Notes: generated from the sequence alone by a model not told the origin. A DNA stretch of 64,000 nucleotides from Nannocystales bacterium (GCA_050633305.1 JBOEGF010000018.1:480001-544000); one strand, 5' to 3'. Positions 13,742 through 43,477 are shown, counted from the first letter of the stretch. Translations and numbers: made by a program.

Positions 13742-16222
13742 ATGAGCCCGAGCCGCAATGATCGGTCGTCGTTCACGGTCCCCGCGACCAGCGGTGACCT
13801 GATCGGCGACATGCAGCGGCAGAATCGGCGACGCATTCTCAAACGTGCCGCGCAGATTACTGCGCTGGGCACCGTGCTGCTGTTGGCCGGGTTCGGCATC
13901 AAGCACCTCGCGGATCAGCGAGACCGGGACAACGTCATCGAGCGGGTTGAGGTGCAGTACGTGCAGGGCACGGTCGCGGACCTGGTCGGCGCGGTCGAGC
14001 TCGCCGAGCTGGGTCTGCAGCGTCACCCCGATCACGCCCCACTTCAGGGCGCCCGGGGTCTGATGCGGGCTCACCTGTGGGCGGAGTTCGGCAGCGACCA
14101 GGCGGCCGCCGCTGCTGCCGTGGACGCACTCCCGCCCTCGCCCGCAAAAACGATCGGCGAGGGCATGCTTGCGTTCGCGGCCGGAGACATCGATGCGGCC
14201 GCCGCGGCGCTCGACGTCGACCTTGGGGAGGCCGCGTCCACCTTCGAGCAGCTCGAGCTGACGTGGTTGCAAGGGATGGTCGCAGCAGCTCGGGCCGAGG
14301 CGGATCCCGAACGCATGGCGGCGACGCTGGAGGTGCTTGGTGCTCGTGTCGACGCCGGTGATGCGGGCACATCGCTGCGGCGTGTCCAGGCGTACTTGCT
14401 GCTGCTCTCGGGGCAGAGCGAGCCCGCACTCGACATGTTGTCCGCCGCGCGGGGGCAAGCCCGGTCCCACTACGGACTGGCTGCCGACGAGGCGTTGTTC
14501 AACGCCCACCTCCATCAAGAACTCGGCGGTGTCGCCAGCGTGGCAGACCAGCTTCTGGCCATGTCGCCCGAGGCTCTCTCTCCGCGAGATCGCGCCCACG
14601 CTGCGCTGTCGCGGGCGGTGGCGCATGTTGCCGAGGGGGAGCCCGACGATGCGCTCGAGCGCCTGGACGAGGCGTGGCCCAATTTGTCGGCGTGGAACAT
14701 GCTAGCGCGCCGACTGGCGGTTCAGACCGCGCTCGATGCTGGCGACACGAAACGCTACGAGGACTGGCTCGAAACCTCCGCGTTCGGCGAGGACGAGAAA
14801 GCGATCTACCGAGCCTGGGCGACCTTGATCGGCGGGGACGTCATGAAGGCGCTATCGCAGCTCGAGAAAGCCCCCCAGGCGCATCCTTGGGTCGGTCTGC
14901 TTCAGGCGTTGGCGCTGGTCGAACAGGGGCGATGGGAAGAGGCCAAGCCCTGGGTCGACCGCGCAGGGAAGCTGTTGCCGGGGCGCCACGACCTCGAGGT
15001 CGCCGCGGCTCGCGTCGATCTGCGGCTTGGCGACAAGGCGCTGGCGCTGCGTCGACTCGAAGCGCTCGCGGAACAAGAGGCGCATGCCCCACGAGCTTTC
15101 ACAGGACTCGGCGAGGCGCATCTCCTGCAAGACGGGGACGACAGGAGCGACAAGAGAGCCAAGCGAGCGTTGGAAAAGGCCGTAGATCGGGAGTCGGCAC
15201 CCGCCGAAGCGAAGTTCCTGCTCAGCGGCATCTTGCACCGCCGTCGGATGAAGGATCCAGAGGCGGAGGAGAGGGCGCTCGAACTGCTGCGATCAGCCGC
15301 CAAGACGAACCCCCACCTTCCGCGGTACCGCATTGCGCTGGCCGGATACTTGGCGGACCTCGGCTACACACGTGAGGCCCTCGAGCGCATGGACAAGCTG
15401 CGTGGCGAAGTCGGCGTCTCGTGGCCCTTCATGCTGCGACACGCACGCATGCTCGTGGAACGGAGGGGTCCGCTGGACGAAAAGGGCGTCGAGGCGCTTC
15501 TAAAGTCCGCCGAGGAGGCGGGCGCGGACGCGGCTTCGCTTCGCAAGGAGCGCGCGCGAATCGATCTCCGGGTGGGGTCGAAGGAGTCGTTGGCGAAGGC
15601 TCAACTCGAACTCGAAGCGTTGATCGCCGAACGACCCGCCGATACGGACGCCCACGTATTGCTGGCGATGACACTGCTCAAGCAGTTCGACCGCAAAGGG
15701 GCGGATGCGGTCGCTCGACGAGCCGTTGCGACCGTCGCTGCCGACGACATCGGCCTGCTCCGGCTCGCGCGCGCGAAGATCTCCGCGCGGGTGGGGCGTA
15801 CCGTCCAGGCCGCACCGATGGCCCGTTCGGCCTGGACTGCGTTGCTCTCCGCCGAGTCGGTGACGACGGCCCAACTCTTGGATGCCGGGGCCCTCACGAC
15901 GCGACTTTGGACCCGGCGGAAGAAAGACGCCGTCGCGCTACGGGTCGCCCGGGAGCTGACGGATCGCGTGGCCTATCACGCCGACGCCTGGACGATCCGA
16001 GCTCGCACAGAGTTGGCCGCGAATGAGGCGTCGAGTGCTCGCGAGAGCGCCAGGACAGCGCTCGAACTCGATGAGAACAACCCCGGCGCCCACGAGATCC
16101 AGGGGCACTGCCTGCTGCGCTTCGGTGACAAGGCAGGGGCCCGCAAGGCGTACGAACAGGCGATTGAGCTCGCGAGCGCGTCCGAGAAGGACACCTACCG
16201 GGCCAATCTCAAGCGTCTGTAA
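13742..16222 (+). CDS. Large membrane-anchored TPR protein
   Basis: N-terminal TM segment followed by Ala/Leu-rich helical repeats ending in a clear TPR (ARKAYEQAIEL). Confidence 0.75.
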   Translation: MSPSRNDRSSFTVPATSGDLIGDMQRQNRRRILKRAAQITALGTVLLLAGFGIKHLADQRDRDNVIERVEVQYVQGTVADLVGAVELAELGLQRHPDHAPLQGARGLMRAHLWAEFGSDQAAAAAAVDALPPSPAKTIGEGMLAFAAGDIDAAAAALDVDLGEAASTFEQLELTWLQGMVAAARAEADPERMAATLEVLGARVDAGDAGTSLRRVQAYLLLLSGQSEPALDMLSAARGQARSHYGLAADEALFNAHLHQELGGVASVADQLLAMSPEALSPRDRAHAALSRAVAHVAEGEPDDALERLDEAWPNLSAWNMLARRLAVQTALDAGDTKRYEDWLETSAFGEDEKAIYRAWATLIGGDVMKALSQLEKAPQAHPWVGLLQALALVEQGRWEEAKPWVDRAGKLLPGRHDLEVAAARVDLRLGDKALALRRLEALAEQEAHAPRAFTGLGEAHLLQDGDDRSDKRAKRALEKAVDRESAPAEAKFLLSGILHRRRMKDPEAEERALELLRSAAKTNPHLPRYRIALAGYLADLGYTREALERMDKLRGEVGVSWPFMLRHARMLVERRGPLDEKGVEALLKSAEEAGADAASLRKERARIDLRVGSKESLAKAQLELEALIAERPADTDAHVLLAMTLLKQFDRKGADAVARRAVATVAADDIGLLRLARAKISARVGRTVQAAPMARSAWTALLSAESVTTAQLLDAGALTTRLWTRRKKDAVALRVARELTDRVAYHADAWTIRARTELAANEASSARESARTALELDENNPGAHEIQGHCLLRFGDKAGARKAYEQAIELASASEKDTYRANLKRL

Positions 16223-16275
16223 GCGGCTCGGGACGAACCGAACCGCTTCGGACCGCCCCGACTCCGGAGCAGGAC

Positions 16276-17979
16276 TCAGGGGGAGGACAACAGCACCGTG
16301 GTGTTGTCGTCGCCCGTGTTGGTCACGGCGATGTCGCCCACACCATCGTCGTTGAAGTCAGCGACGGCGACCGCGCTGGGTACGCTACCGACGGCGAAGG
16401 TGAACGTGTCGTCGAACGCACCGAGTCCGTTGCCGACCAAGATGGTGACGGTTTCGTCGGTGGCGTTGACCGTGATCAGGTCGAGTTCGTCGTCTGCGTT
16501 GATGTCGGCCGCCGTGATCGCGACCGTACCCGCACCGACCGCGAACGGCACCCCTCCTCCGAACCCTCCGATGCCATTGCCCAGCGCGACGGTGACGAGC
16601 CCCTCCGTGGTGACGACGGCGTCGTCGTTCATGTCACCGTTGATGTCGGCGACGGTAAAGGCCGTTGCCGCCGAGCCAACCGAGGTTGTCGCGGGAGGTC
16701 CGAACAAGCCCGCACCGTTGCCCGCAACCAGGACGACATCACTGCCGACGATGCCGACGATGTCGATGTTGTCGTCGCCCGAGAAGTCGCCCGCAAAAAC
16801 GTCGGGTGCCGCCCCGCCCATGTCGACGGCTGTCGCGTCGCCGAACGCTCCCGCCCCGTCGCCGGGGAGCACGGAGACGCCTGCGCTCGTCTTGGCGATG
16901 ACAGCGTCGAGGAAGGTGTCTTCGTTGATGTCTGCGAAGCTGACCTGCAGCGGTCCGTTGCCGCCCGCGTCATACGTCGTGACGGCGCCGAACGTCCCGT
17001 CGTCTCCGCCCGGGAGAACACCCAGAGCTTGGTCGCCCTGAAGTGTGACGACAAGCTCCGGGCTTCCGGCACCGTCGAGATCGACCAAGGCCAGCGAGGA
17101 AGGGTTGGTGCCGACGGGGTAGGTCGCGTCGGCGATCAAGATGCCGGTCCCGTTTCCGACGCGGACGCCGACTTCGTTGTCGACTCCGCCTGCGACGATC
17201 AGGTCGGCGTTTCCGTCACCATCGATGTCTTGTGCGAGCACGGCACGAGGCCCAGCGGGCGCATCAAAGGAGAGACCTTCGATGAAGCACACCTCCCCGG
17301 TGTTGACGGTTCCGTCTCCACACTCTCCAGGACCGGTTGTCGGGTCGTCGGTGGTGTCGGTGGCGGTGGTGGAGTCGGTGTCGGTGTCGGCGGCGCTGTC
17401 CGTGGCAGTCGGACCGGCTGTGGTCGAGCCGTCATCGTCCGTCTCCGAACCGGTCGCGGGGTCGGTGTCAGAATCGGTGGCCGTTCCAACGTCGGTATCG
17501 GTGTCCGTGTCGGACGGAATGCTCGAAGACACGATGAGCCCATAGTGGGCGGCAAGCGTATCGTCGGTGCATGTGACCACCTGTGTGTCGAAGTCGATGT
17601 TGGTGCGGGTGAGCGCGGCGTAGGAGCCACCCACGTCACGACCGATGACGAGCTGGTTGGCGTCGCGCCCGTTGACCTCCGCGGCGGTAAACGTGTAGTC
17701 GAGCACCGCGTTGAGCCCCAGCGTCGCTTGCGGGCGGACCGAGTAGTTCGCACCGAGCGCGGCGGGGCCGTCGGCGGTCGCGGTGACCGTGAACTCTGTG
17801 AGCGCCGCGAGTGCCCCCGGCGGGATGGTGATGCGCAGGGCACCCGCCTCGAGGACGCCGCCCTCGGGTCCGATGGACTTGGTCTGCTCACCATTTTGTG
17901 TGGCCTCGTCGGGCTCGTTGCAGCCCGGCACAAGCGCGCACGACAAGGCTGCGACGACGAATGAAAGTCCAGTCCGCAT
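16276..17979 (-). CDS. Lipoprotein with ZU5-like N-domain, Thr/Asp linker and FG-GAP/VCBS repeats
   Basis: Lipobox VPGC; IGPEGG..L.IPPGAL (ZU5-like); repeated DxDGDGxxDL motifs. Confidence 0.8.
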   Translation of the reverse strand: MRTGLSFVVAALSCALVPGCNEPDEATQNGEQTKSIGPEGGVLEAGALRITIPPGALAALTEFTVTATADGPAALGANYSVRPQATLGLNAVLDYTFTAAEVNGRDANQLVIGRDVGGSYAALTRTNIDFDTQVVTCTDDTLAAHYGLIVSSSIPSDTDTDTDVGTATDSDTDPATGSETDDDGSTTAGPTATDSAADTDTDSTTATDTTDDPTTGPGECGDGTVNTGEVCFIEGLSFDAPAGPRAVLAQDIDGDGNADLIVAGGVDNEVGVRVGNGTGILIADATYPVGTNPSSLALVDLDGAGSPELVVTLQGDQALGVLPGGDDGTFGAVTTYDAGGNGPLQVSFADINEDTFLDAVIAKTSAGVSVLPGDGAGAFGDATAVDMGGAAPDVFAGDFSGDDNIDIVGIVGSDVVLVAGNGAGLFGPPATTSVGSAATAFTVADINGDMNDDAVVTTEGLVTVALGNGIGGFGGGVPFAVGAGTVAITAADINADDELDLITVNATDETVTILVGNGLGAFDDTFTFAVGSVPSAVAVADFNDDGVGDIAVTNTGDDNTTVLLSSP

Positions 17980-34167: not shown

Positions 34168-34609
34168 GTCCTGAGGATATGTGAAAAGTCGCTAGTGGGA
34201 AAGCCATTTCTAGTAATGTCTCATACTGATACGATTGTTCGTGACGCTGTCGGCGCGAGTCGGTGGATATCGGCGCCCGGATCACGTGGCGGTCGAAAAC
34301 GTCCACAGAGGGGCGAAGATGCGCCGATCAGCCAACGGGCTGGTGTCTCAATGCGCGACAGTGAACGCCTATGCTCGCTTCGGAACACCATTCGGACCTC
34401 GATGTACGGAATCGCGCATTGGTGAATCCACTATTGTATGCAGCGTCCGGCAGCCGCGACAACCGGCCACCGGCATCAGGGTTTTTCCGTAGAATCAGGC
34501 AGCCGGCAGCTGGGGGCGTACACCCCCATGCCGTCAGAGCTGCTTGGTTCTTCGGAGATCCGAGGTTCGCCCTTACCATGGCGAACCCGTGCCGGATGAC
34601 GGTATCGCA

Positions 34610-36004
34610 GTGAAGAACGCGGCCCTACGTGTCCTCCTCGTCGACGACGATGCTTCTCGGAGCGCCGGCGTACAGCGTTCGATGGAAGCTGCCGGCTTTG
34701 AGGTCGGTCGAGCACGTCGAGACGCGGAGGCGTTCGATCGTCTTCGTAGCGAGACGTTCGACGCCGTGGTCTGCGAGACGCGGGCGGCTGGCGGCTTGGC
34801 CGAGCGTGTCGTCGAGTGGATCGGACGCTGCTCTCCGTCGATGCGAATCGTTGTGCTTGGTAACGAGGCCAACGTTGCCAGGCGCTTTGAATCGCTAGGG
34901 GTGCGCTCGGTCGCAAACCCCGACGACCACGAAACGCTGACCGACACGTTGCGCGGACTTGGGGTCCGACGTGGCTTCTTCGGAAACTCGATCGAAGTCG
35001 AGTTGTTCGACTACGTGCAGATGGTCGCGTTGACCGGGCGCGACAAGTTGGTCGAAGTCTCCACGCCCCGCGGCCTCGGCCGCATCTGGTTTGAGCATGG
35101 CGACATCGTGCACGCCGAGTTTGGCCAGTTCCGTGGAGAGCTTGCGTTCTACAAGATGTTGGCAGCAGGTCGAGGCCTGTTCCGCGAGGCGCTACTCAGT
35201 GCGCCGCCCAAGCGAACCATCGTTCGTTCGAGCACCCATCTCTTGATGGAGGCGGCACGGCAGACCGACGAAGGCACACTCGGACAGGGCGGTGCACCAG
35301 AGGAGGACGAAGAGGTCTCCTTCGGCGAGCTTATGGAGGAAGCGGAAACCGGGGAGCACGTGTCGCCAAGCGTCGCACCCGAGACGCTTGCCGCCGGCCC
35401 GAGCGGGCCCCATCCGCCCGTCATCTCCGACGCCGAGGCGAGCGGAGCGATGCTCGCAGCGGCGGCCCGGCCACCAGCCGGCGACGACGACTTCGTCGCT
35501 TTGGTGAGCGATGCGATTCAGCTCGAGGGACTGGAGTCACAGCCTGACTTGGGGCCCGCGGACTCGATGATGGGGTCGATCAGCGAGGTCGACGCAGCCG
35601 TCGGACGAGCGACGAAGCCCACCATCGCGGAAGAGTCTCAGAGCGCGATGGCTTCGGGCCATGCGGTGTTCGAGGATCCGGAGACGCGCACCGCGATGCT
35701 CGACCAGTTCTGGCAGTTCGAGGGGATCAACGGCGTTGCGATCATCTCGTCGACAGGAAAGGTGCTCGCGGAGGACATGCGAAACAACTCCTCCCTGGTG
35801 ACGCTGGCCGGGTTCTACATGCGCGGCGCGGCTCGAATCGCGCGAACGCTCGGGTACAACGTCTTCGACGGGATCGTGGCGCGTTCCGTTCAGGGTCAAC
35901 AAATGGTCATGGTCAGCATGGGCGCAGCGTCGGCGGTTCTTTCTGTTGAGCCGGGTGCCGACCCGGAGGCGGTTCGAGATGCTGTGATGGGGGTCGACTC
36001 GTGA
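34610..36004 (+). CDS. Pseudo-receiver + DUF4388 (PatA-N) + C-terminal Roadblock/LC7 protein
   Basis: VLLVDDD...FDAVVCE (Glu at the phospho-Asp position); ELFDYVQM..GRIWFEHGDIVHA..LLMEAAR (DUF4388); EGINGVAIISSTGKVLA (Roadblock). Confidence 0.8.
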   Translation: MKNAALRVLLVDDDASRSAGVQRSMEAAGFEVGRARRDAEAFDRLRSETFDAVVCETRAAGGLAERVVEWIGRCSPSMRIVVLGNEANVARRFESLGVRSVANPDDHETLTDTLRGLGVRRGFFGNSIEVELFDYVQMVALTGRDKLVEVSTPRGLGRIWFEHGDIVHAEFGQFRGELAFYKMLAAGRGLFREALLSAPPKRTIVRSSTHLLMEAARQTDEGTLGQGGAPEEDEEVSFGELMEEAETGEHVSPSVAPETLAAGPSGPHPPVISDAEASGAMLAAAARPPAGDDDFVALVSDAIQLEGLESQPDLGPADSMMGSISEVDAAVGRATKPTIAEESQSAMASGHAVFEDPETRTAMLDQFWQFEGINGVAIISSTGKVLAEDMRNNSSLVTLAGFYMRGAARIARTLGYNVFDGIVARSVQGQQMVMVSMGAASAVLSVEPGADPEAVRDAVMGVDS

Positions 36005-36675
36005 TCGATGCAAGAGAACAGCTGCTTGAACTGCTCGAGGAACTCGGCGCAGTCCCCGGAGTGCGCGCGGCTCTGATCGCGACTTCGGAAGGTGCGGTCG
36101 CGACCAGTGGAGAGGCCTCGATGCCCGCGGAGACCGCGAACGACGTGGCGAAGACCATCCGCCGTATGACGGTGGCCTCGGCCACGGTGGGCGTGCCGCT
36201 CAAAGACTTGCTGATCAACTTCGGTCCCGCCCGAATGATGGTCGTTCCGGTCACCGAGGATGCGACTGTCGTCAGTCTGCTCGAGCGGGATACCGCCGTC
36301 ACCCCGGTGCGGCGTGTTCTGGGGATGCAACTCGACGCGCTTCGTTCGCTCCTGGCTGGTGAGGAGGACGACATCGATGTTGATGTTGTCGACGAGGCCG
36401 AAGAGGAGGTCGAGCGAATCCTGCGCGGAGAGCTCGGTCCCGTTCTGCAGCGGATTCGTGCGCAGTTCCGAGACTTCGCAGTTCAAGCCGGCCACGGGGC
36501 GGAGCAGACCGAGACGATGATGCGCGAACAGCTGCGCGAGTGGCTGCTGTGTTGCAACCCGTCGACGTACACGTTTCCGCTGCTCGTCGACGGCCTTGGT
36601 CAGCTTCTCAACGATGCCCCCGCGGCGCGCTCGGCCTTCATGGAGAAGGTCCAGGTGACCATCCGCTCGGGCTGA
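36001..36675 (+). CDS. Roadblock/LC7 (MglB-like) domain protein with helical C-terminal extension
   Basis: LEELGAVPGVRAALIATSEG...LKDLLINFGPARMMVVPV; GTGA overlap with the upstream gene. Confidence 0.8.
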   Translation: MIDAREQLLELLEELGAVPGVRAALIATSEGAVATSGEASMPAETANDVAKTIRRMTVASATVGVPLKDLLINFGPARMMVVPVTEDATVVSLLERDTAVTPVRRVLGMQLDALRSLLAGEEDDIDVDVVDEAEEEVERILRGELGPVLQRIRAQFRDFAVQAGHGAEQTETMMREQLREWLLCCNPSTYTFPLLVDGLGQLLNDAPAARSAFMEKVQVTIRSG

Positions 36676-38509: not shown

Positions 38510-38582
38510 GCCCAGGTAGCTCAGTTGGTAGAGCACTGGACTGAAAATCCGGGTGTCCGTGGTTCAAATCCGCGCCTGGGCA
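38510..38582 (+). tRNA. tRNA-Phe(GAA), CCA not encoded
   Basis: Cloverleaf GCCCAGG/CCTGGGC, D-arm GCTC/GAGC, anticodon loop CTGAAAA, T-loop TTCAAAT. Confidence 0.97.
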
Positions 38583-38592
38583 CTGAAACCCG
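38538..38592 (+). repeat. attL direct repeat (tRNA-Phe 3' half)
   Basis: 55 bp identical to 43423-43477; similarity continues through the terminator. Confidence 0.95.
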
Positions 38593-38617
38593 CCTCGATG
38601 AGGCGGGTTTTTCTTTT
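38586..38617 (+). terminator. Intrinsic terminator after tRNA-Phe
   Basis: AAACCCGCCTC-GAT-GAGGCGGGTTT followed by a T-rich run. Confidence 0.85.
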
Positions 38618-38657
38618 GGTTGGGTTGGCCAGGAAGCAGATGGGTCGCACCCAGCGG

Positions 38658-39323
38658 CTACAGGTCTCGGAGTTGTTCGATGGCGCTGCACGTCGCCTCA
38701 GCTTCGGAGCAGGCCTTTCGGACTTTCGAAAGCTTGGCTCCCACTTGTTGGCCGAACGCTTGGTAGCGATGGAGCTCCTTCCAAGGCTTGCCGTCTGAGG
38801 GGCTCAGCCGGAGACGGTCCTTGTTTACCAAGAAGCCAGCGGGATCCTCGACCGACTCTACTCGCCGTTCTCGCGGGAAGAGAGCGGCAATCACCCAGTT
38901 CTCGATGGCCATGACTGGGGTCGAGAGCACCACGCGTGGTGGGATCTTCTTGCGCTGAGCTGTCCGGCACCAGGAGCGTATCTTGTTCTTCAACCGGGTC
39001 GTCTCGTAGGCACCCACGTCTTGCGGCGGGTTCGCGATTTTGGCTTGCACGGCGATGTCGACGTCGATCGCAATGATCAGCACGCAGAGAGGGTCACCGA
39101 TGTCGCTCTCGATGACGTCGTCGAGTTCTCCGGCGTGGTCTTCGCACCACCGTCGGACTTCGCTCCAACCCGCCGGGTTCGAGGCCTTCTGAGTCGCATC
39201 GAGTTGAGGTTGCAGGCAGAGCACGTCATCGATCTCTGGCCACAGCGATTCAACGATCGCGCGGAGCACGGGAAAGTCGGTGTGTCCCTCGCACACGACG
39301 CCTGCGACAAGCGGCTCAGACAC
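38658..39323 (-). CDS. TOPRIM-fold putative nuclease (DUF4276/RloB/AriB-like)
   Basis: VVCEGHTD (E..D), IIAIDVD (DxD), PVMAIENWV (ExW); GTG start overlaps the ATPase stop by 8 nt with GGAGG upstream. Confidence 0.75.
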   Translation of the reverse strand: MSEPLVAGVVCEGHTDFPVLRAIVESLWPEIDDVLCLQPQLDATQKASNPAGWSEVRRWCEDHAGELDDVIESDIGDPLCVLIIAIDVDIAVQAKIANPPQDVGAYETTRLKNKIRSWCRTAQRKKIPPRVVLSTPVMAIENWVIAALFPRERRVESVEDPAGFLVNKDRLRLSPSDGKPWKELHRYQAFGQQVGAKLSKVRKACSEAEATCSAIEQLRDL

Positions 39324-40701
39324 TCGGCATTCCTCCCAGACGGCCTTCCACCCATAGCCGACTCACGGCGAACTCACCGTGTTTGGCTTTCGCGGCGGCG
39401 AGGTTCTTCACCGCGACTCGTCGGATCTTGGTGTGGCCTTTGGCGTTGCGAGAGACGGTAAACAAACGAATCCGTTCGTCGGACAGGTCGAGTCCGTCGA
39501 GGACCAGTGGGTTGTGGGTCGTCAGGAACGCCTGCCTGCGTGCCGCGAGAAGAGCTTCGCAGAACGCGCGTGTCAGCGCCCGTGCGGCGCGTGGGTTCAA
39601 GGACTGGTCGAAGTTGTCGACCGCGAACGCGAGAGGGGACCTGGTATGAGCAGCAAGCACCATCATGAACAGGACGAAGAGGGCGCCCTCGCTCGCGTCG
39701 TATCCGGAAAGGACGTTGCGCTTGCTCGCCATGAAGCGGTCACGGAATTCGACGACCTGGCGACTTGTGGGGACGCTGGGAGAGAGAAACTTGCTAGACG
39801 GCTCACCTGTGCCGATGGAGCGCGCCCAGTCGATCAGTCCGAGCGCGCGTGAGAGTGCCGCTCGACCGGACTTGCTCGTCGAGAGGGCGCCTACCGCTTC
39901 GGCGAGTTGTCCTCCGTAGAGTCCGACCGGCGCCCGCGGGGCGCTATCAGGAGCGACCGCCCGAAGCACAGGAGTCACGGGGGCAAAGATCGCGAAGTCA
40001 TCCAAGGTCGACAGCAAGTCGCGCGCCACGAGCGGGGCCTCAGGACTTGCTCGTGCAAGCGTCGTAACGCTGCGTGTGTTCTCCAGGGGGACGGATAGTC
40101 CGAGCGCAGATGCATTGCCGCTCGGTGCCCTGGACGCGATCGTCGCTCCGTCGACGATCAGCGACTCATTCCCGAACTTCCAGAACGGTGACGGGTTGGT
40201 CGTCGAGTTGGTAATGTACGCGTGGTAGGCCGCGCCTCCGGTAGAGGTAGCGCGAAGCGAAATCTTGGGCGCCAGCCGTTCGTTCGCGAAGCTGCTCTTG
40301 TAGAGTTCTGGGACTCCAGGCCTGACACCTCGCCGCAGCAATGCTTGGTCATCGACAACACCCGCCGCGCACGCTCCGAGGATTCCGATCGCTTCGAGCA
40401 GGCAGCTCTTGCCGGCTCCGTTTGCGCCGACGAAGACGTTGACCTGCCCGAAATCCACGGACACCGACTTCAAGGACTTGAAGTCCTTGACCTCAAGCGA
40501 CGCGAGGTGGCCTGCGAGTTCGCGTTCTTCAGGCGATTGTTCGTCCGCCTGGGCGCGGGGGGCCGACACTTTCGGAACGGTGCGTCGAGTCTTCCGAGTT
40601 GTCTTCTTGGGAGTCCGGGTTGCCTTCTTCGACTTGGACTTCCCCTTGCGTTGAGCTGGTCGGTCCTGCGCTTGCTTCTTTTTTGTCGCTTTCTTCGGCA
40701 T
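39316..40701 (-). CDS. ABC-type ATPase (AAA_21/AAA_15-like) with basic N-terminal tail
   Basis: FKSL, Walker A GANGAGKS, signature ASEG, Walker B FAVDN, H-loop TTHNP, C-terminal LWVEGRLGG. Confidence 0.9.
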   Translation of the reverse strand: MPKKATKKKQAQDRPAQRKGKSKSKKATRTPKKTTRKTRRTVPKVSAPRAQADEQSPEERELAGHLASLEVKDFKSLKSVSVDFGQVNVFVGANGAGKSCLLEAIGILGACAAGVVDDQALLRRGVRPGVPELYKSSFANERLAPKISLRATSTGGAAYHAYITNSTTNPSPFWKFGNESLIVDGATIASRAPSGNASALGLSVPLENTRSVTTLARASPEAPLVARDLLSTLDDFAIFAPVTPVLRAVAPDSAPRAPVGLYGGQLAEAVGALSTSKSGRAALSRALGLIDWARSIGTGEPSSKFLSPSVPTSRQVVEFRDRFMASKRNVLSGYDASEGALFVLFMMVLAAHTRSPLAFAVDNFDQSLNPRAARALTRAFCEALLAARRQAFLTTHNPLVLDGLDLSDERIRLFTVSRNAKGHTKIRRVAVKNLAAAKAKHGEFAVSRLWVEGRLGGMPSV

Positions 40702-40786
40702 CACTCAACTCTTGCGTCCAGTCGAATAGTGGCTCGTCATGCTCATCTTGTTGCGCCCGGAGAACCGCGCCGAGTGTCGCATGCTC

Positions 40787-41020
40787 CTACCGGTTTCCGA
40801 GAACGCAAGGTCCACTTCCCGGGCGGTGCGGGAAGCCGTAGCCGCTGCAGGCACAGGTAGGTCGACCGCGCCGATGCGACTGCACAGTTGTGGAGGTGCC
40901 GCCATGGGATGCGCAGCGCCCAAGCGGGTCTCCCCAGACGCTGAAGCCTTGGCAAGCTCGCCCTTCCCGCGTGTATGCCGTGCATCTTCGGAGCTTGCGG
41001 ACCGTGTCGGAGTAGGCCAT
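40787..41020 (-). CDS. HGGxSTG-like zinc-binding small protein
   Basis: CTAYTREGRAC...GRCASHGGTST plus a second Cys/His cluster CACSGYGFPHRPGSGPC. Confidence 0.7.
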   Translation of the reverse strand: MAYSDTVRKLRRCTAYTREGRACQGFSVWGDPLGRCASHGGTSTTVQSHRRGRPTCACSGYGFPHRPGSGPCVLGNR

Positions 41021-41188
41021 CGGACGCTCTACGTCAGCTGAGTGACCGGCTCTCAGGCCCCTCGACGAATAGGGCCGTTGGGCGGCCTCTCGCGTTCGAA
41101 TTCGCGTTCGAACCAGCTGTCGGAATCAACTGGTTGGCGCCCGCGGAAAGCCGGCGCCGTGCGCCTGCGCTTCCCGGTTCTCGGTCGC

Positions 41189-41686
41189 CTATGACCAAGC
41201 CAAGGCCCGAGGGATCCGGCGATCTTCGACGCAGCCTCGGCCGCGGCGGCGACAACAGGGCTGTCGGGTACAGCCCATGAAGATCATCGGATCCCGGTGT
41301 TTGAAGAGCAGATAGGGGAGGCCGGACTCGTGCCTGGGCTCGGTCCCGAACTCGCGGACGTCGATGCGTCCGTGCCGGGTCGGTGCGCAAGCCCGCCAGG
41401 CAGATTGGAGAAGCGTGGGCGCTAGAAGGGCCGGACGTCCCGATGGCGCGGCGAGGAGGTGCCAGTGCCAGCCTTGCCCGTCGGGGTGGACGTCGCCGCT
41501 GTAGAGCACGAGGACGTGCTGGTCGAGCCGCGCCGCCAGCTCGCGAGCGAATCGCTTCGGGTCGCGGAGCGCGGCGTACTCGGAGATCGGGCGGCGATAG
41601 GTCAGCGTCATGAACACCGACCAGTCGACCGTCGACGTCGCGGCGAGCCATGCCTGCGCCGCGCGGCGGTCGAGCCCGTCTCTCAC
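41189..41686 (-). CDS. Small HUH endonuclease, rolling-circle Rep-like
   Basis: Motif I FMTLTY, motif II GWHWHLL, motif III-like YLLFK; GTG 41686 overlaps the xis stop (GTGA) with GGAGG just upstream. Confidence 0.72.
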   Translation of the reverse strand: MRDGLDRRAAQAWLAATSTVDWSVFMTLTYRRPISEYAALRDPKRFARELAARLDQHVLVLYSGDVHPDGQGWHWHLLAAPSGRPALLAPTLLQSAWRACAPTRHGRIDVREFGTEPRHESGLPYLLFKHRDPMIFMGCTRQPCCRRRGRGCVEDRRIPRALAWS

Positions 41687-41919
41687 CACTCCTCCGCGGT
41701 GGAGTCGCGCTGCGAGTCCCCGAGGAACTCCTCGATGGACTCCATCGCGTAGCGGATGATCGCGGTCCGAGCCTTGTGGAACTTGTGGTAGCGAGGGCCG
41801 ATGCCCTGTCTTCGCCATCGACTCAGCGTCGCGGTCGAGACGTTGAGCAGTTCGGCCACGTCCTGCGGGCGCAGGAGTGCTTGCGGGCGACCGTCGCCCG
41901 CCCCATCAGTTGCCAGCAT
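41683..41919 (-). CDS. Excisionase/AlpA-like HTH (HTH_17)
   Basis: LLRPQDVAELLNVSTATLSRWRRQGIGPRY..IRYAMESIEEF. Confidence 0.88.
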   Translation of the reverse strand: MLATDGAGDGRPQALLRPQDVAELLNVSTATLSRWRRQGIGPRYHKFHKARTAIIRYAMESIEEFLGDSQRDSTAEEW

Positions 41920-42047
41920 GTTGGTAGATGTAGCCGCGACAGGATTTGCGTCAAGTCGAAATCTTCAATCATCGCTACATGTTAGCTGTCACCCTCGAAC
42001 ACTCTGCGGGTACGGTCTGCCACCGTCTGCGACTCAACTGCCGGTGA

Positions 42048-43253
42048 TCATCGGCTGGCACGATTCGCTCCGAAGCCCATCGAGTCTGCGAGCCGCTGCG
42101 AGATTTTCTTGCTCGCTTCCTGCAGCGGGTGGAGCTGAAGCTCCGCGTACCGCTGGGTCGTCGCCTGGCTCTTGTGGCCAAGCAGCGACCCAATCACCGG
42201 GAGCGAGTGCTGGAGCCCGACCGCGTGTGTCGCGAAGTTGTGCCGCAGGTCGTGGAGCCGGACATCGCCCAGCCCGGCACGCTTGCGCACCGCCATCCAC
42301 GGCTTGTTGATGTCGTGCAGCGGTCGCCCGGGGTTCTTCGGGGACGCGAAGACGTAGGCGTTCTCCGGGTCGCGTGGGAGCCCTTCGAGTACCGTTCGCG
42401 CGGCCGCGTTCAGCGGGACGATCTTGCTCCCAGTCTTGCTGTCGCGGAGCCGCAGCATGTTTCGCTCGAAGTCGACTTCGTCCCAGCGCAGGCGTAGGCA
42501 CTCGCTGCGGCGCACCCCGGTGAACAGCAGGAAGCGGATCGCCGCGATGGCCGTCGGGTTCAGCGCGACGGTCGGGTCGTCGCTCTCGGCCTCCAGCAGC
42601 ACATTGGCCAAGCGGCGGAGCTCGAGATCGTTGAGGTCGCGGTGGAGCTTCCGCTCCTTGTACCGCTGCACGCGAGCGGACGGGTTCGAGCCGATCGGTC
42701 GCCAGCCCCAGGTCTCGGCGAGGTTGAGCATCTTGCTGATGAGCGACAGCACCCGGTTGGCGGCGCCCGTGGTCTCTCGCATGCCGTGGTGCAGAGACTG
42801 CACGTCATCCAGACCGATGGCGGTCACCTTGAGCTTCCCCAGGCGGGGCAGGACGTGAAGCCGGAGGTTGGCCCGGTCGGTCTCGACCGAGGACGGCTCC
42901 TTCTTCGGGACCGCGTGCTCCCGCAGGTACCGCTCCGCGAGGTCTTCGACCGTTGGCGCCCGTCGCAGGCTCTGGCGTGTCTTCGACGGGTCGCCGCCCT
43001 GCTTGACGATGTGCAGCCACTCGCGCGCGATCTCCCGCGCCTGGTCGACCGTCAGCTCCCCGAAGGACCCGATCTTCGGCTTACGGCTCGTGTTGTCCTG
43101 GGTCCGGTAGAAGAGCAGGAACGAGGCGCGCCCGGTGGCGTAGACCCGGCACATCAGCCCGGTCACCTCGGTGTCCCAGAACTCGACCGCTCGCTTCTCC
43201 TTGCGGGCAGCGTCGATGATGCGCTTCGTGATCCGTGTCGTTTCGCTCGCCAT
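42048..43253 (-). CDS. Tyrosine integrase with N-terminal arm-binding domain
   Basis: WDTEVTGL..RV..TG arm domain; catalytic R (TGVRRSE), K (DSKTG), HDLRH, LGH, Y (TQRYA) all intact. Confidence 0.96.
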   Translation of the reverse strand: MASETTRITKRIIDAARKEKRAVEFWDTEVTGLMCRVYATGRASFLLFYRTQDNTSRKPKIGSFGELTVDQAREIAREWLHIVKQGGDPSKTRQSLRRAPTVEDLAERYLREHAVPKKEPSSVETDRANLRLHVLPRLGKLKVTAIGLDDVQSLHHGMRETTGAANRVLSLISKMLNLAETWGWRPIGSNPSARVQRYKERKLHRDLNDLELRRLANVLLEAESDDPTVALNPTAIAAIRFLLFTGVRRSECLRLRWDEVDFERNMLRLRDSKTGSKIVPLNAAARTVLEGLPRDPENAYVFASPKNPGRPLHDINKPWMAVRKRAGLGDVRLHDLRHNFATHAVGLQHSLPVIGSLLGHKSQATTQRYAELQLHPLQEASKKISQRLADSMGFGANRASR

Positions 43254-43422
43254 CCGTGCTTCTCCAGGTCGCAACCAGGTAGCACCAAGATGACCCCAGG
43301 TGACCGAACCCGCAATCGTGAAGTCGACCGGGAAGCAGTGATAGCGAGCGTTTAGGGCCGAAGTGGCGACTTTTCCGTTCAACCCGCCCGAAGTCGATCC
43401 AACCTGTCTCGTGCCGACACGG

Positions 43423-43477
43423 GGACTGAAAATCCGGGTGTCCGTGGTTCAAATCCGCGCCTGGGCACTGAAACCCG
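43423..43477 (+). repeat. attR direct repeat (tRNA-Phe 3' fragment) followed by a terminator copy
   Basis: Identical to 38538-38592; followed by TCTC-TT-GAGGCGGGTTTTTCTTTTT. Confidence 0.95.

Follow-up and report, generated by a model that had tools for sequence, protein, structure and literature searches.

Phage satellites of the PICMI type in Vibrionaceae form rolling-circle-like concatemers that are packaged by a virulent helper, and their host is protected against other phages (PMC10803314; here and below, statements on published systems refer to the available parts of the cited sources). The I55-type islands of Pseudomonas occupy a tmRNA site, carry defense cargo and are transduced by a phage as satellites (PMC12595487), and in streptococcal integrative and mobilizable elements (IMEs) roles in both replication and transfer have been proposed for one protein (PMC5704250). 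In the present work, we analyzed a stretch of 64,000 nucleotides from a Nannocystales bacterium (GCA_050633305.1 JBOEGF010000018.1:480001-544000; hereafter, the window), which at positions 38538-43477 contains an integrative element combining a tyrosine integrase, an excisionase-like (Xis) protein and a small HUH endonuclease with exchangeable cargo genes. The element is real and seems to be intact, and it belongs to a kind of mobile element that is undescribed yet recognizably ordinary. Its distinctive parts are the putative zinc-finger mini-HUH protein and the hairpin 3' of its gene, and the covarying hairpin is new here. Literature searches on integrative elements, rolling-circle replication, HUH proteins, satellites, excisionases and tRNA themes returned only analogues, with no description of this family.

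The element and its candidate replicon

The element is enclosed by a 55-bp exact direct repeat (38538-38592 and 43423-43477, spacing 4885 bp) and comprises six intact open reading frames (ORFs), all co-oriented on the minus strand, in the order integrase, Xis, HUH, 77-aa Cys/His protein, ATPase (PDC-M31A) and TOPRIM protein (PDC-M31B). This layout had been claimed in the original prediction, made from the sequence alone, and was borne out by the repeat search, the ORFs and ARAGORN. The prediction had also noted the lack of capsid, terminase, primase/helicase, type IV coupling protein (T4CP) and type IV secretion system (T4SS) genes, in agreement with our family-library scans, where none of these families was matched by the six proteins. 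The similarity of the repeats runs on imperfectly to 87 bp, across a terminator-like hairpin, and within 36-46 kb the 55-bp pair is the sole long direct repeat (the next two-copy family has 28 nt, 82%). The tRNA-Phe gene at the left end, the only one of the genome according to ARAGORN, stays intact after integration, since its own 3' part is the left copy of the attachment site (att). The features are as follows (window coordinates):

38510-38583, plus strand: tRNA-Phe(GAA) (ARAGORN, Rfam RF00005), with the left att copy as its 3' part
38538-38592, plus strand: left att core, 55 bp exact, beginning in the anticodon stem; terminator-like hairpin and T run after it
38658-39323, minus strand: PDC-M31B, predicted OLD-like TOPRIM nuclease, 221 aa (PADLOC E 3e-27)
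39316-40704, minus strand: PDC-M31A, ABC-type ATPase (PADLOC E 2e-136 over residues 68-462; PF13304)
40787-41020, minus strand: 77-aa protein with two Cys/His clusters (HGGxSTG-like and CxCxxYxFPHRxGSGxC motifs)
41111-41135, minus strand: second hairpin by folding, with a stem of 9 bp and a loop of 7 nt (41126-41120); possible nick site
41145-41176, minus strand: bulged hairpin 3' of the HUH stop codon, apex at 41164-41154 (fold, family motif and covariation)
41189-41689, minus strand: single-Tyr HUH endonuclease, 166 aa; the gene start overlaps the xis stop
41683-41919, minus strand: Xis/AlpA-like HTH_17 protein, 78 aa (HTH_17 E 6e-10; phrog_66)
41949-41954, minus strand: hexamer TTGACG, located upstream of xis and shared with the sister element of genome G002
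42048-43253, minus strand: tyrosine integrase, 401 aa (PF00589 and the arm-binding domain Arm-DNA-bind_3)
43423-43477, plus strand: right att core, the displaced 3' part of tRNA-Phe; terminator-like hairpin after it; same boundary and arm in G002

The element occurs once in the 11-Mb, 92%-complete source genome (G000). Its GC content is 64.5% vs. 65.9% for the genome, with 62.2% in the cargo part and 66.9% in the core part. An Rfam scan gave nothing above the gathering score except the tRNA. The host class (Polyangia) includes Polyangiaceae, and we infer that the host is a myxobacterium.

In the HUH protein, the features of a rolling-circle initiator are present: motif I (T30), the HUH motif II (H75/H77) and the catalytic Tyr (Y126). 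Its family matches are PF23343 (E 0.004) and, for rolling-circle initiation, phrog_3419 (E 2e-4); in the atlas it falls among PF23343 clusters both by features and by structure, and the 166-aa protein has no helicase domain. The family alignment contains 22 members, collected by genome searches and two protein searches, in which three C-terminal cysteines (C140, C146 and C153, window numbering) and an extra histidine (H58) are invariant; this Cys3/His set is probably a zinc site. PF23343 is matched by 20 of the 22 proteins and RepSA (PF20199) weakly by three; no other Pfam family is found among them, and therefore no MOB relaxase family, nor do they have a Pfam match to the Y1_Tnp/Y2_Tnp transposases. 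By Pfam, the window protein also lies outside the Rep_2, Rep_trans and Viral_Rep families. In a profile search of the PDB, 6 of 7 weak matches were Rep endonucleases (E 0.18-1.6). The predicted model (confidence score pLDDT 78.9) has an HUH/RRM fold, with SIRV1 ORF119 as the best structural match among HUH proteins (Z 8.6, root-mean-square deviation 2.8, 104 aligned residues) and the AAV and parvovirus Reps at Z 7.3; in Foldseek, neither this model nor that of PDC-M31B had a match reaching E 0.001.

The region 41110-41190, behind the HUH gene, folds as two hairpins (z -4.15; 0 of 200 shuffles were as good). The apex motif of the first, G-N-GC-A(N1-3)G-GC-N'-C, lies at most 80 nt from the HUH stop codon at 10 of 20 family loci (counted without L062, where the contig ends; 8 of 18 lineages when two sister pairs are merged), vs. 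3 of the 1238 gene ends of G000 and none of the 115 other genes at the same family loci. With a 3-nt loop only, nine of the 20 loci fit, and a loose hairpin definition is uninformative, as it matches 381 of the 1238 control gene ends. Nine copies could be aligned, and at their variable pair five have A-T, three C-G and one G-T; pairing is seen in 88.9% of the cells vs. 33-53% in slid controls, and the covariation score was reached by 10 of 500 shuffles. Several loci without the motif carry other hairpins at the same place. Inside the element there is one other loose match, wobble-paired and within xis. On these patterns, the hairpin at 41145-41176 is predicted to be the binding site of the HUH protein and likely the origin, although it might also act as RNA. 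The loop of the second hairpin recurs in G002 with one change and in the loose ends of two public runs (X6 and X7), and it was not recognized in distant members; as a putative nick site it is a lead only. Between G000 and G002, the third position is changed in 7 of the last 45 codons of the HUH gene vs. 50 of the 122 codons elsewhere.

The integrase retains all of its catalytic motif residues (R248, K273, H334, R337, H360 and Y369). The Xis-like protein is predicted to be a recombination directionality factor and regulator, and the TTGACG hexamer is possibly the -35 box of a xis-HUH operon.

Relatives and exchangeable cargo

The HUH family was examined at 21 loci, which belong to 16 genomes of the same class and one metagenome contig. 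Among 400 genomes searched in the class, 15 have a member; members also occur in 4 of 72 genomes of the order (all within the genus of the window), in 5 of 21 and 4 of 201 genomes of two other families, and in 6 of 401 genomes of a phylum sample, all of the same class; these counts include G000 wherever it was searched. Of the 21 loci, 10 have a Xis/AlpA (HTH_17) gene directly upstream of HUH (8 recognized by Pfam or BLAST; L069 and L073 by eye), 12 have an integrase, in one case of the serine type, and 13 have a tRNA/tmRNA gene or its 3' fragment; most loci lacking these neighbors end at contig edges. The target sites include tRNA-Phe, -Thr, -Met, -Asn, -Arg, -Pro and tmRNA, and the enclosing repeats have 58 bp (100%) at L053, 58 bp (93%) at L065 and 28 bp across L066/L067. 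The tyrosine integrases show 23-51% identity and some pairs do not align; this divergence, together with the serine integrase, suggests that the xis-HUH module has been reshuffled with different integration modules. The neighboring genes vary as well and are often defense-like (TPR protein, GmrSD with EVE-HNH, AlbA_2-RecG, STAND ATPase, caspase, AbiTii), and some of them may lie outside the elements, because the ends are fixed only for L001, L053, L065 and L066/L067.

The view of a minimal integrative element with an int-xis-HUH core and exchangeable cargo, as originally proposed, is thus upheld by relatives that occupy tRNA/tmRNA att sites with other cargo. Of the predicted synteny, the int-xis-HUH order recurs with variable cargo, but the HGGxSTG gene is not constant: it is accessory rather than part of the core, being absent from the sister element of G002. 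The proposed tie to tRNA-Phe also had to be given up, as other tRNA/tmRNA sites and several integrase types are used.

Several members show individual arrangements. At L055 (12832-14915, genome G243), int-xis-HUH and cargo are followed by a 162-aa Cys-containing gene and then by Terminase_6N and Terminase_6C genes, with no capsid gene seen in this stretch, which is possibly the packaging module of a family member. In G304, two contigs (L066:9718-9745 and L067:4179-6134) have nearly the same HUH gene, and each of them holds one half of a single tmRNA att; int extends into the tmRNA 3' end, and a circle would set xis-int-attP directly upstream of HUH, possibly as an excision-dependent switch. 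The 7.2-kb tRNA-Arg island of G004 (L065:7813-15101) has 58-bp repeats and only the last third of HUH with an intact hairpin; no integrase was found in it, and it is possibly a non-autonomous derivative. In members from different genera an AlbA_2/RecG-like gene lies directly behind HUH (L058:3283-4746, L063:7456-8355), and serine resolvase genes are found at the far end besides the tyrosine integrase at L058:488-2162 and L055:17506-18198.

In G002, a close relative, the right att is the same and adjoins the same core, which is approximately 78% identical, with different cargo; an insertion sequence (IS) is inserted in its int gene, and its HUH gene contains a stop. Four public runs from four studies (X1, X3, X6 and X7) contain the core at about 6-10% divergence. 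Run X3 covers the element in full, including its cargo, except for 192 nt that contain the int start. Divergence begins behind the HUH gene in X6 and X7 and some 30-45 nt into the 77-aa gene in X1, and different DNA lies downstream of the compact core in at least two of the four runs. The sharp break at 41135 in the four runs is partly an alignment effect, as the second loop motif goes on to about 41117. The 114-nt spacer at 41021-41134 contains a hairpin and a short repeated palindrome; X1 and X3 have a different sequence of 117-118 nt instead, and the similarity returns precisely where the 77-aa gene has its start codon. X6 and X7 are contigs of RNA libraries and are not taken as evidence of transcription.

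A joint in X6 between 38612 and 43644 was considered as an empty site and was not counted; it is ambiguous, since it begins exactly at the repeat and the right end of an occupied site would look the same. Five relatives of the genus have a tRNA-Phe gene without duplicated att, and they show the lack of the element rather than a clean attB, as other genes lie behind the tRNA. At L018-L021, from genus relatives without the element, a single large, secreted-looking gene (650-870 aa), lacking in the window, occupies the stretch from tRNA-Phe to the DUF3556 gene, and the tRNA-Phe flank is for that reason regarded as a variable region.

The cargo, initially described as defense-like, proved to be a recognized defense candidate, namely the PADLOC candidate system PDC-M31, defined by adjacent M31A and M31B genes as found here. 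PDC-M31A has a Walker A motif (GANGAGKS, residues 93-100) and an N-terminal Lys/Arg-rich extension of approximately 65 aa (window 40510-40704) outside the PADLOC model. In an alignment of 11 sequences, the acidic TOPRIM-type residues of PDC-M31B are conserved (E12, G13, D16 and D87 invariant, D89 nearly so). The five best VIA matches of its model (pLDDT 87.7) are C-terminal TOPRIM regions of OLD nucleases (Z 6.8-7.6; the next, unrelated match has 5.7). The two genes are adjacent in 9 of 10 further loci; at L191 the ATPase is in two pieces. PDC-M31B occurs in 13 of 201 genomes of the class, and in the two larger regions examined it is found without the HUH core, which marks PDC-M31 as independent cargo. 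Because of the TOPRIM acidic motifs and the OLD structural matches, a role of the pair in anti-phage defense is predicted and plausible. A literature search on PDC-M31 yielded neither a description nor an activity test.

The 77-aa ORF is a real gene, as judged from its substitution pattern and from a 50% identical homolog (P0013) that keeps both motifs: among the 39 listed variants of run X3 (10 further ones lie outside the count), 24 fall on codon position 3 (p 3e-4), and the motif Cys/His residues are unchanged. The HGGxSTG domain, a type linked to terminase small subunits, is matched just below the curated cut-off (NF041373, 27.8 bits, E 1.5e-6; cut-off 29). Two PHROGs are matched weakly (phrog_5016 at E 5e-4), and the nearest atlas clusters are partly viral. 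A scan of the loci for C-x(1-3)-HGG gave a clear second example in one other locus only. In phage searches the HGGxSTG protein of L067 had no match and the window protein had weak matches to hypothetical proteins only; a literature search on HGGxSTG found no description.

Other features of the surroundings concern the host. Upstream of the vWA lipoprotein gene adjoining the tRNA, the window (34544-36675) contains response-regulator/Roadblock-like and Roadblock-like genes, recognized by eye. A further tyrosine integrase gene adjoins tRNA-Sec on contig C28 of G000 (15978-16981) and marks a second integrated element, and the contigs C13, C27, C32, C47 and C49 carry extra tRNA clusters that duplicate tRNAs from elsewhere in the genome and are possibly acquired arrays.

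A proposed mode of replication and spread

On balance, we lean toward the reading that the element is intact, is excised by Int and Xis, replicates as a rolling circle through the HUH protein at the hairpin, spreads in the particles of a helper phage and carries anti-phage cargo. Int and Xis would recombine both att copies into a 4885-bp circle, and the xis-HUH operon would be induced. The HUH protein, probably zinc-bound via its Cys3/His set, would bind the coding strand at the bulged hairpin and nick near it, possibly in the loop of the adjacent hairpin. A host helicase and polymerase would extend the nick; both would be needed, because the element encodes neither. Copies would be packaged by the helper phage, with the 77-aa Cys/His protein as an optional accessory, and PDC-M31 may act like other ABC-ATPase/TOPRIM systems, in which the nuclease is set free once the ATPase has sensed infection. 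A phage as helper is suggested by the terminase genes of L055, by the phage-type Cys/His fingers and by the 87 scanned proteins neighboring the HUH genes of relatives, among which no coupling-protein, FtsK or mating-pair family was matched; the evidence for this choice is thin.

A number of observations weigh against this reading. The motif III of the HUH protein lacks the canonical YxxK spacing, and in the structural comparison its scores are only moderate, as unrelated, non-HUH folds such as ribosomal S6 reach equally high values. The hairpin motif is missing at 10 of the 20 loci and was defined after the loci had been seen; of two loci added later, one fits, with the loop range widened for it. 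Three relatives (G002, X3 and G004) are decayed. In X3, the depth of the element (31.4) equals that of a host-like contig ending in the tRNA (32.2), which gives no sign of amplification, and the public data are contigs, in which a junction across the 55-bp repeat is invisible. No family member was found in IMG/VR with P0001, alignment A4 or P0005, and P0006 had no match among the INPHARED phages and PLSDB plasmids. (A search of IMG/VR for the hairpin-plus-codon pattern gave 99 matches, which are ascribed to chance, since none of the 99 encodes the HUH family.) The 92%-complete host genome has no match to Zot, TerL or an HK97-type capsid and none to T4CP (PF02534) or VirB (PF03135); a helper from outside the genome is conceivable. 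As to the cargo, the main text of the PADLOC preprint does not mention PDC-M31 in its available part, and the related HEC-01 gave no protection there (bioRxiv 10.1101/2024.01.29.577857).

We consider it unlikely that the element is instead an IME whose HUH protein acts as a non-canonical relaxase on an origin of transfer (oriT) in the hairpin region, with the pore and coupling protein supplied by a conjugative helper. The relaxases of streptococcal IMEs are related to rolling-circle initiators, and 35 of 118 such elements have no coupling protein (PMC5704250); moreover, anatomy alone cannot separate a double-strand origin from an oriT, and the failure to find the family in IMG/VR would fit an IME. 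On the other hand, neither the 87 neighboring proteins nor the host genome gave a conjugation match of the kinds named above, one member (L055) has terminase genes, and the HUH protein falls outside the MOB, Rep_2, Rep_trans and Viral_Rep families.

An island that was once larger or replicating, and is now kept by its cargo alone while the HUH module decays, seems improbable to us. The IS and stop in G002, the 192 nt lacking in X3, the G004 island with the 3' third of HUH, its hairpin and no integrase found, and the larger members with terminase or resolvase genes would be expected of it; however, all six genes of the window are open with catalytic residues intact, and the 55-bp repeats are identical. 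Furthermore, the same compact core recurs in four independent studies at the divergence given above, with varied downstream DNA in at least two, and the xis, HUH and 77-aa genes show a third-position bias.

IS200/IS605 TnpA and RAYT proteins are small, have a single Tyr and act beside a bulged hairpin near the gene. The HUH protein recalls them in these respects, ISDra2 TnpA is among the weak Foldseek rows, and the similarity of close relatives breaks right behind the hairpin. Even so, there is little probability that the HUH protein and its 3' hairpin perform single-strand transposition or cargo capture while the integrase alone moves the island: the Pfam and PHROG matches are to replication initiators and not to Y1_Tnp, there is mostly one copy per genome and no second copy in G000, apparent solo copies turned out to lie at tRNA/tmRNA att fragments, and the sole other loose motif match in the element is the wobble-paired one within xis. 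A satellite of a filamentous phage in the style of TLC-phi/RS1, with ssDNA circles made by the HUH protein and extruded by an inovirus helper, is very improbable, since the size of about 5 kb, the direct production of ssDNA by rolling-circle initiators and the description of PF23343 as replication-associated protein ORF2/G2P are opposed by the lack of a Zot-like ATPase match in the host genome, by the element's own integrase and tRNA site in place of Xer/dif, and by the tailed-phage terminase genes in L055.

Taking the preferred reading of a helper-phage-borne rolling-circle element further, we tentatively suggest that it might found a class of phage satellites of myxobacteria that is as yet undescribed, in which a zinc-finger HUH protein of about 160 aa and its hairpin form the whole replicon, a plug-in cassette combined with unrelated tyrosine or serine integrases and optional packaging genes (Cys/His fingers, terminase subunits), and anti-phage systems are shuttled among Polyangia. 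Minimal helper-dependent islands are an important route for moving defense systems, and our literature searches found none of this kind for myxobacteria. The candidate replicon is very small, one short gene and one hairpin, and because the binding site and nick region are predicted, one purified protein and a small set of oligonucleotides suffice for testing its mechanism. If functional, it would give a group poor in genetic tools a compact module that integrates and replicates, and the cargo slot points to candidate defense systems such as PDC-M31.

Comparison with known systems

The two-gene cargo resembles the ATPase-TOPRIM systems of the OLD/Gabija/PARIS/HEC-01 type in its PDC-M31A/B matches and OLD TOPRIM fold, but the ATPase has the extra Lys/Arg-rich N-terminus. 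Among HUH structures, the HUH protein is closest to the mini-Rep SIRV1 ORF119 (PDB 2X3G), which is also a weak profile match (E 0.27); the latter, however, belongs to an archaeal linear virus, shares 14% identity and leaves the C-terminal Cys extension unaligned. HUH transposons of the IS200/IS605 and IS91 kinds have recognition hairpins at both ends and several copies per genome; there is mostly one hairpin per element here and a single copy in G000, although a dissimilar left-end hairpin would escape this comparison.

Actinomycete integrative and conjugative elements (AICEs) of the pSAM2 type combine int, xis and a rolling-circle initiator (RepSA, PF20199) at a tRNA gene with a TraB/FtsK translocase and spread genes. 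The same int-xis-initiator module at a tRNA gene is found here, and three of the 22 family members weakly match RepSA, but there is no TraB/FtsK translocase in the element or among the 87 neighbors of relatives. TLC-phi/RS1 (IMEX) elements integrate at dif through the host XerCD and have no integrase of their own; they share the small size, the HUH Rep and the lack of virion genes, whereas the present element has its own tyrosine integrase and a tRNA att.

The pCRESS integrative plasmids likewise have HUH Reps between att repeats, but these Reps combine HUH with a superfamily 3 helicase (PMC6668415), whereas the 166-aa protein has no helicase domain (longer fused forms were not searched). PIMEs carry int, alpA and a replicase together with trbJ and trbL and are confined to Pseudomonadota (10.64898/2026.01.12.698999); the element has no trb genes, and its host belongs to the class that includes Polyangiaceae. 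VEIMEs are small, integrative and free of capsid genes, with excisionases, defense genes and TerS homologs, and are defined by recovery from virions (PMC9618062); the element is similarly small, integrative and without capsid genes, and is known from its sequence alone.

The streptococcal IMEs combine an integrase with an HUH protein of the rolling-circle replication (RCR) type, some at tRNA genes and some without coupling protein; they differ in being from Firmicutes and in their Rep_trans, PF01719, PHA00330 and PF02407 types, mostly with TcpA (PMC5704250). Of the features of such non-canonical IMEs, the element has its own integrase and att and no T4SS, whereas a Rep_trans, PF01719 or PF02407 relaxase is not present (PF23343 and weak PF20199 only). 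The I55-type islands count a tyrosine integrase, AlpA and an inovirus Gp2-like protein among their common genes, but are of much greater size (their shared region, which includes RadC, YqaJ and others, has 18 kb), and the available part of that source does not describe a mini-HUH protein with a Cys motif or 3' hairpin (PMC12595487). PICMIs are alike in having about six genes, an integrase and AlpA/HTH_17 (PF00589 and PF12728, both found here) and no capsid genes; they differ in requiring a primase (DUF3987/DUF5906) and a fis site, in place of which the element has an HUH nickase and tRNA-Phe, with no primase match in the six ORFs. Overall, the defining features of PICMIs, I55 islands and streptococcal RCR-relaxase IMEs fail where tested, but the element would work in a mode like theirs.

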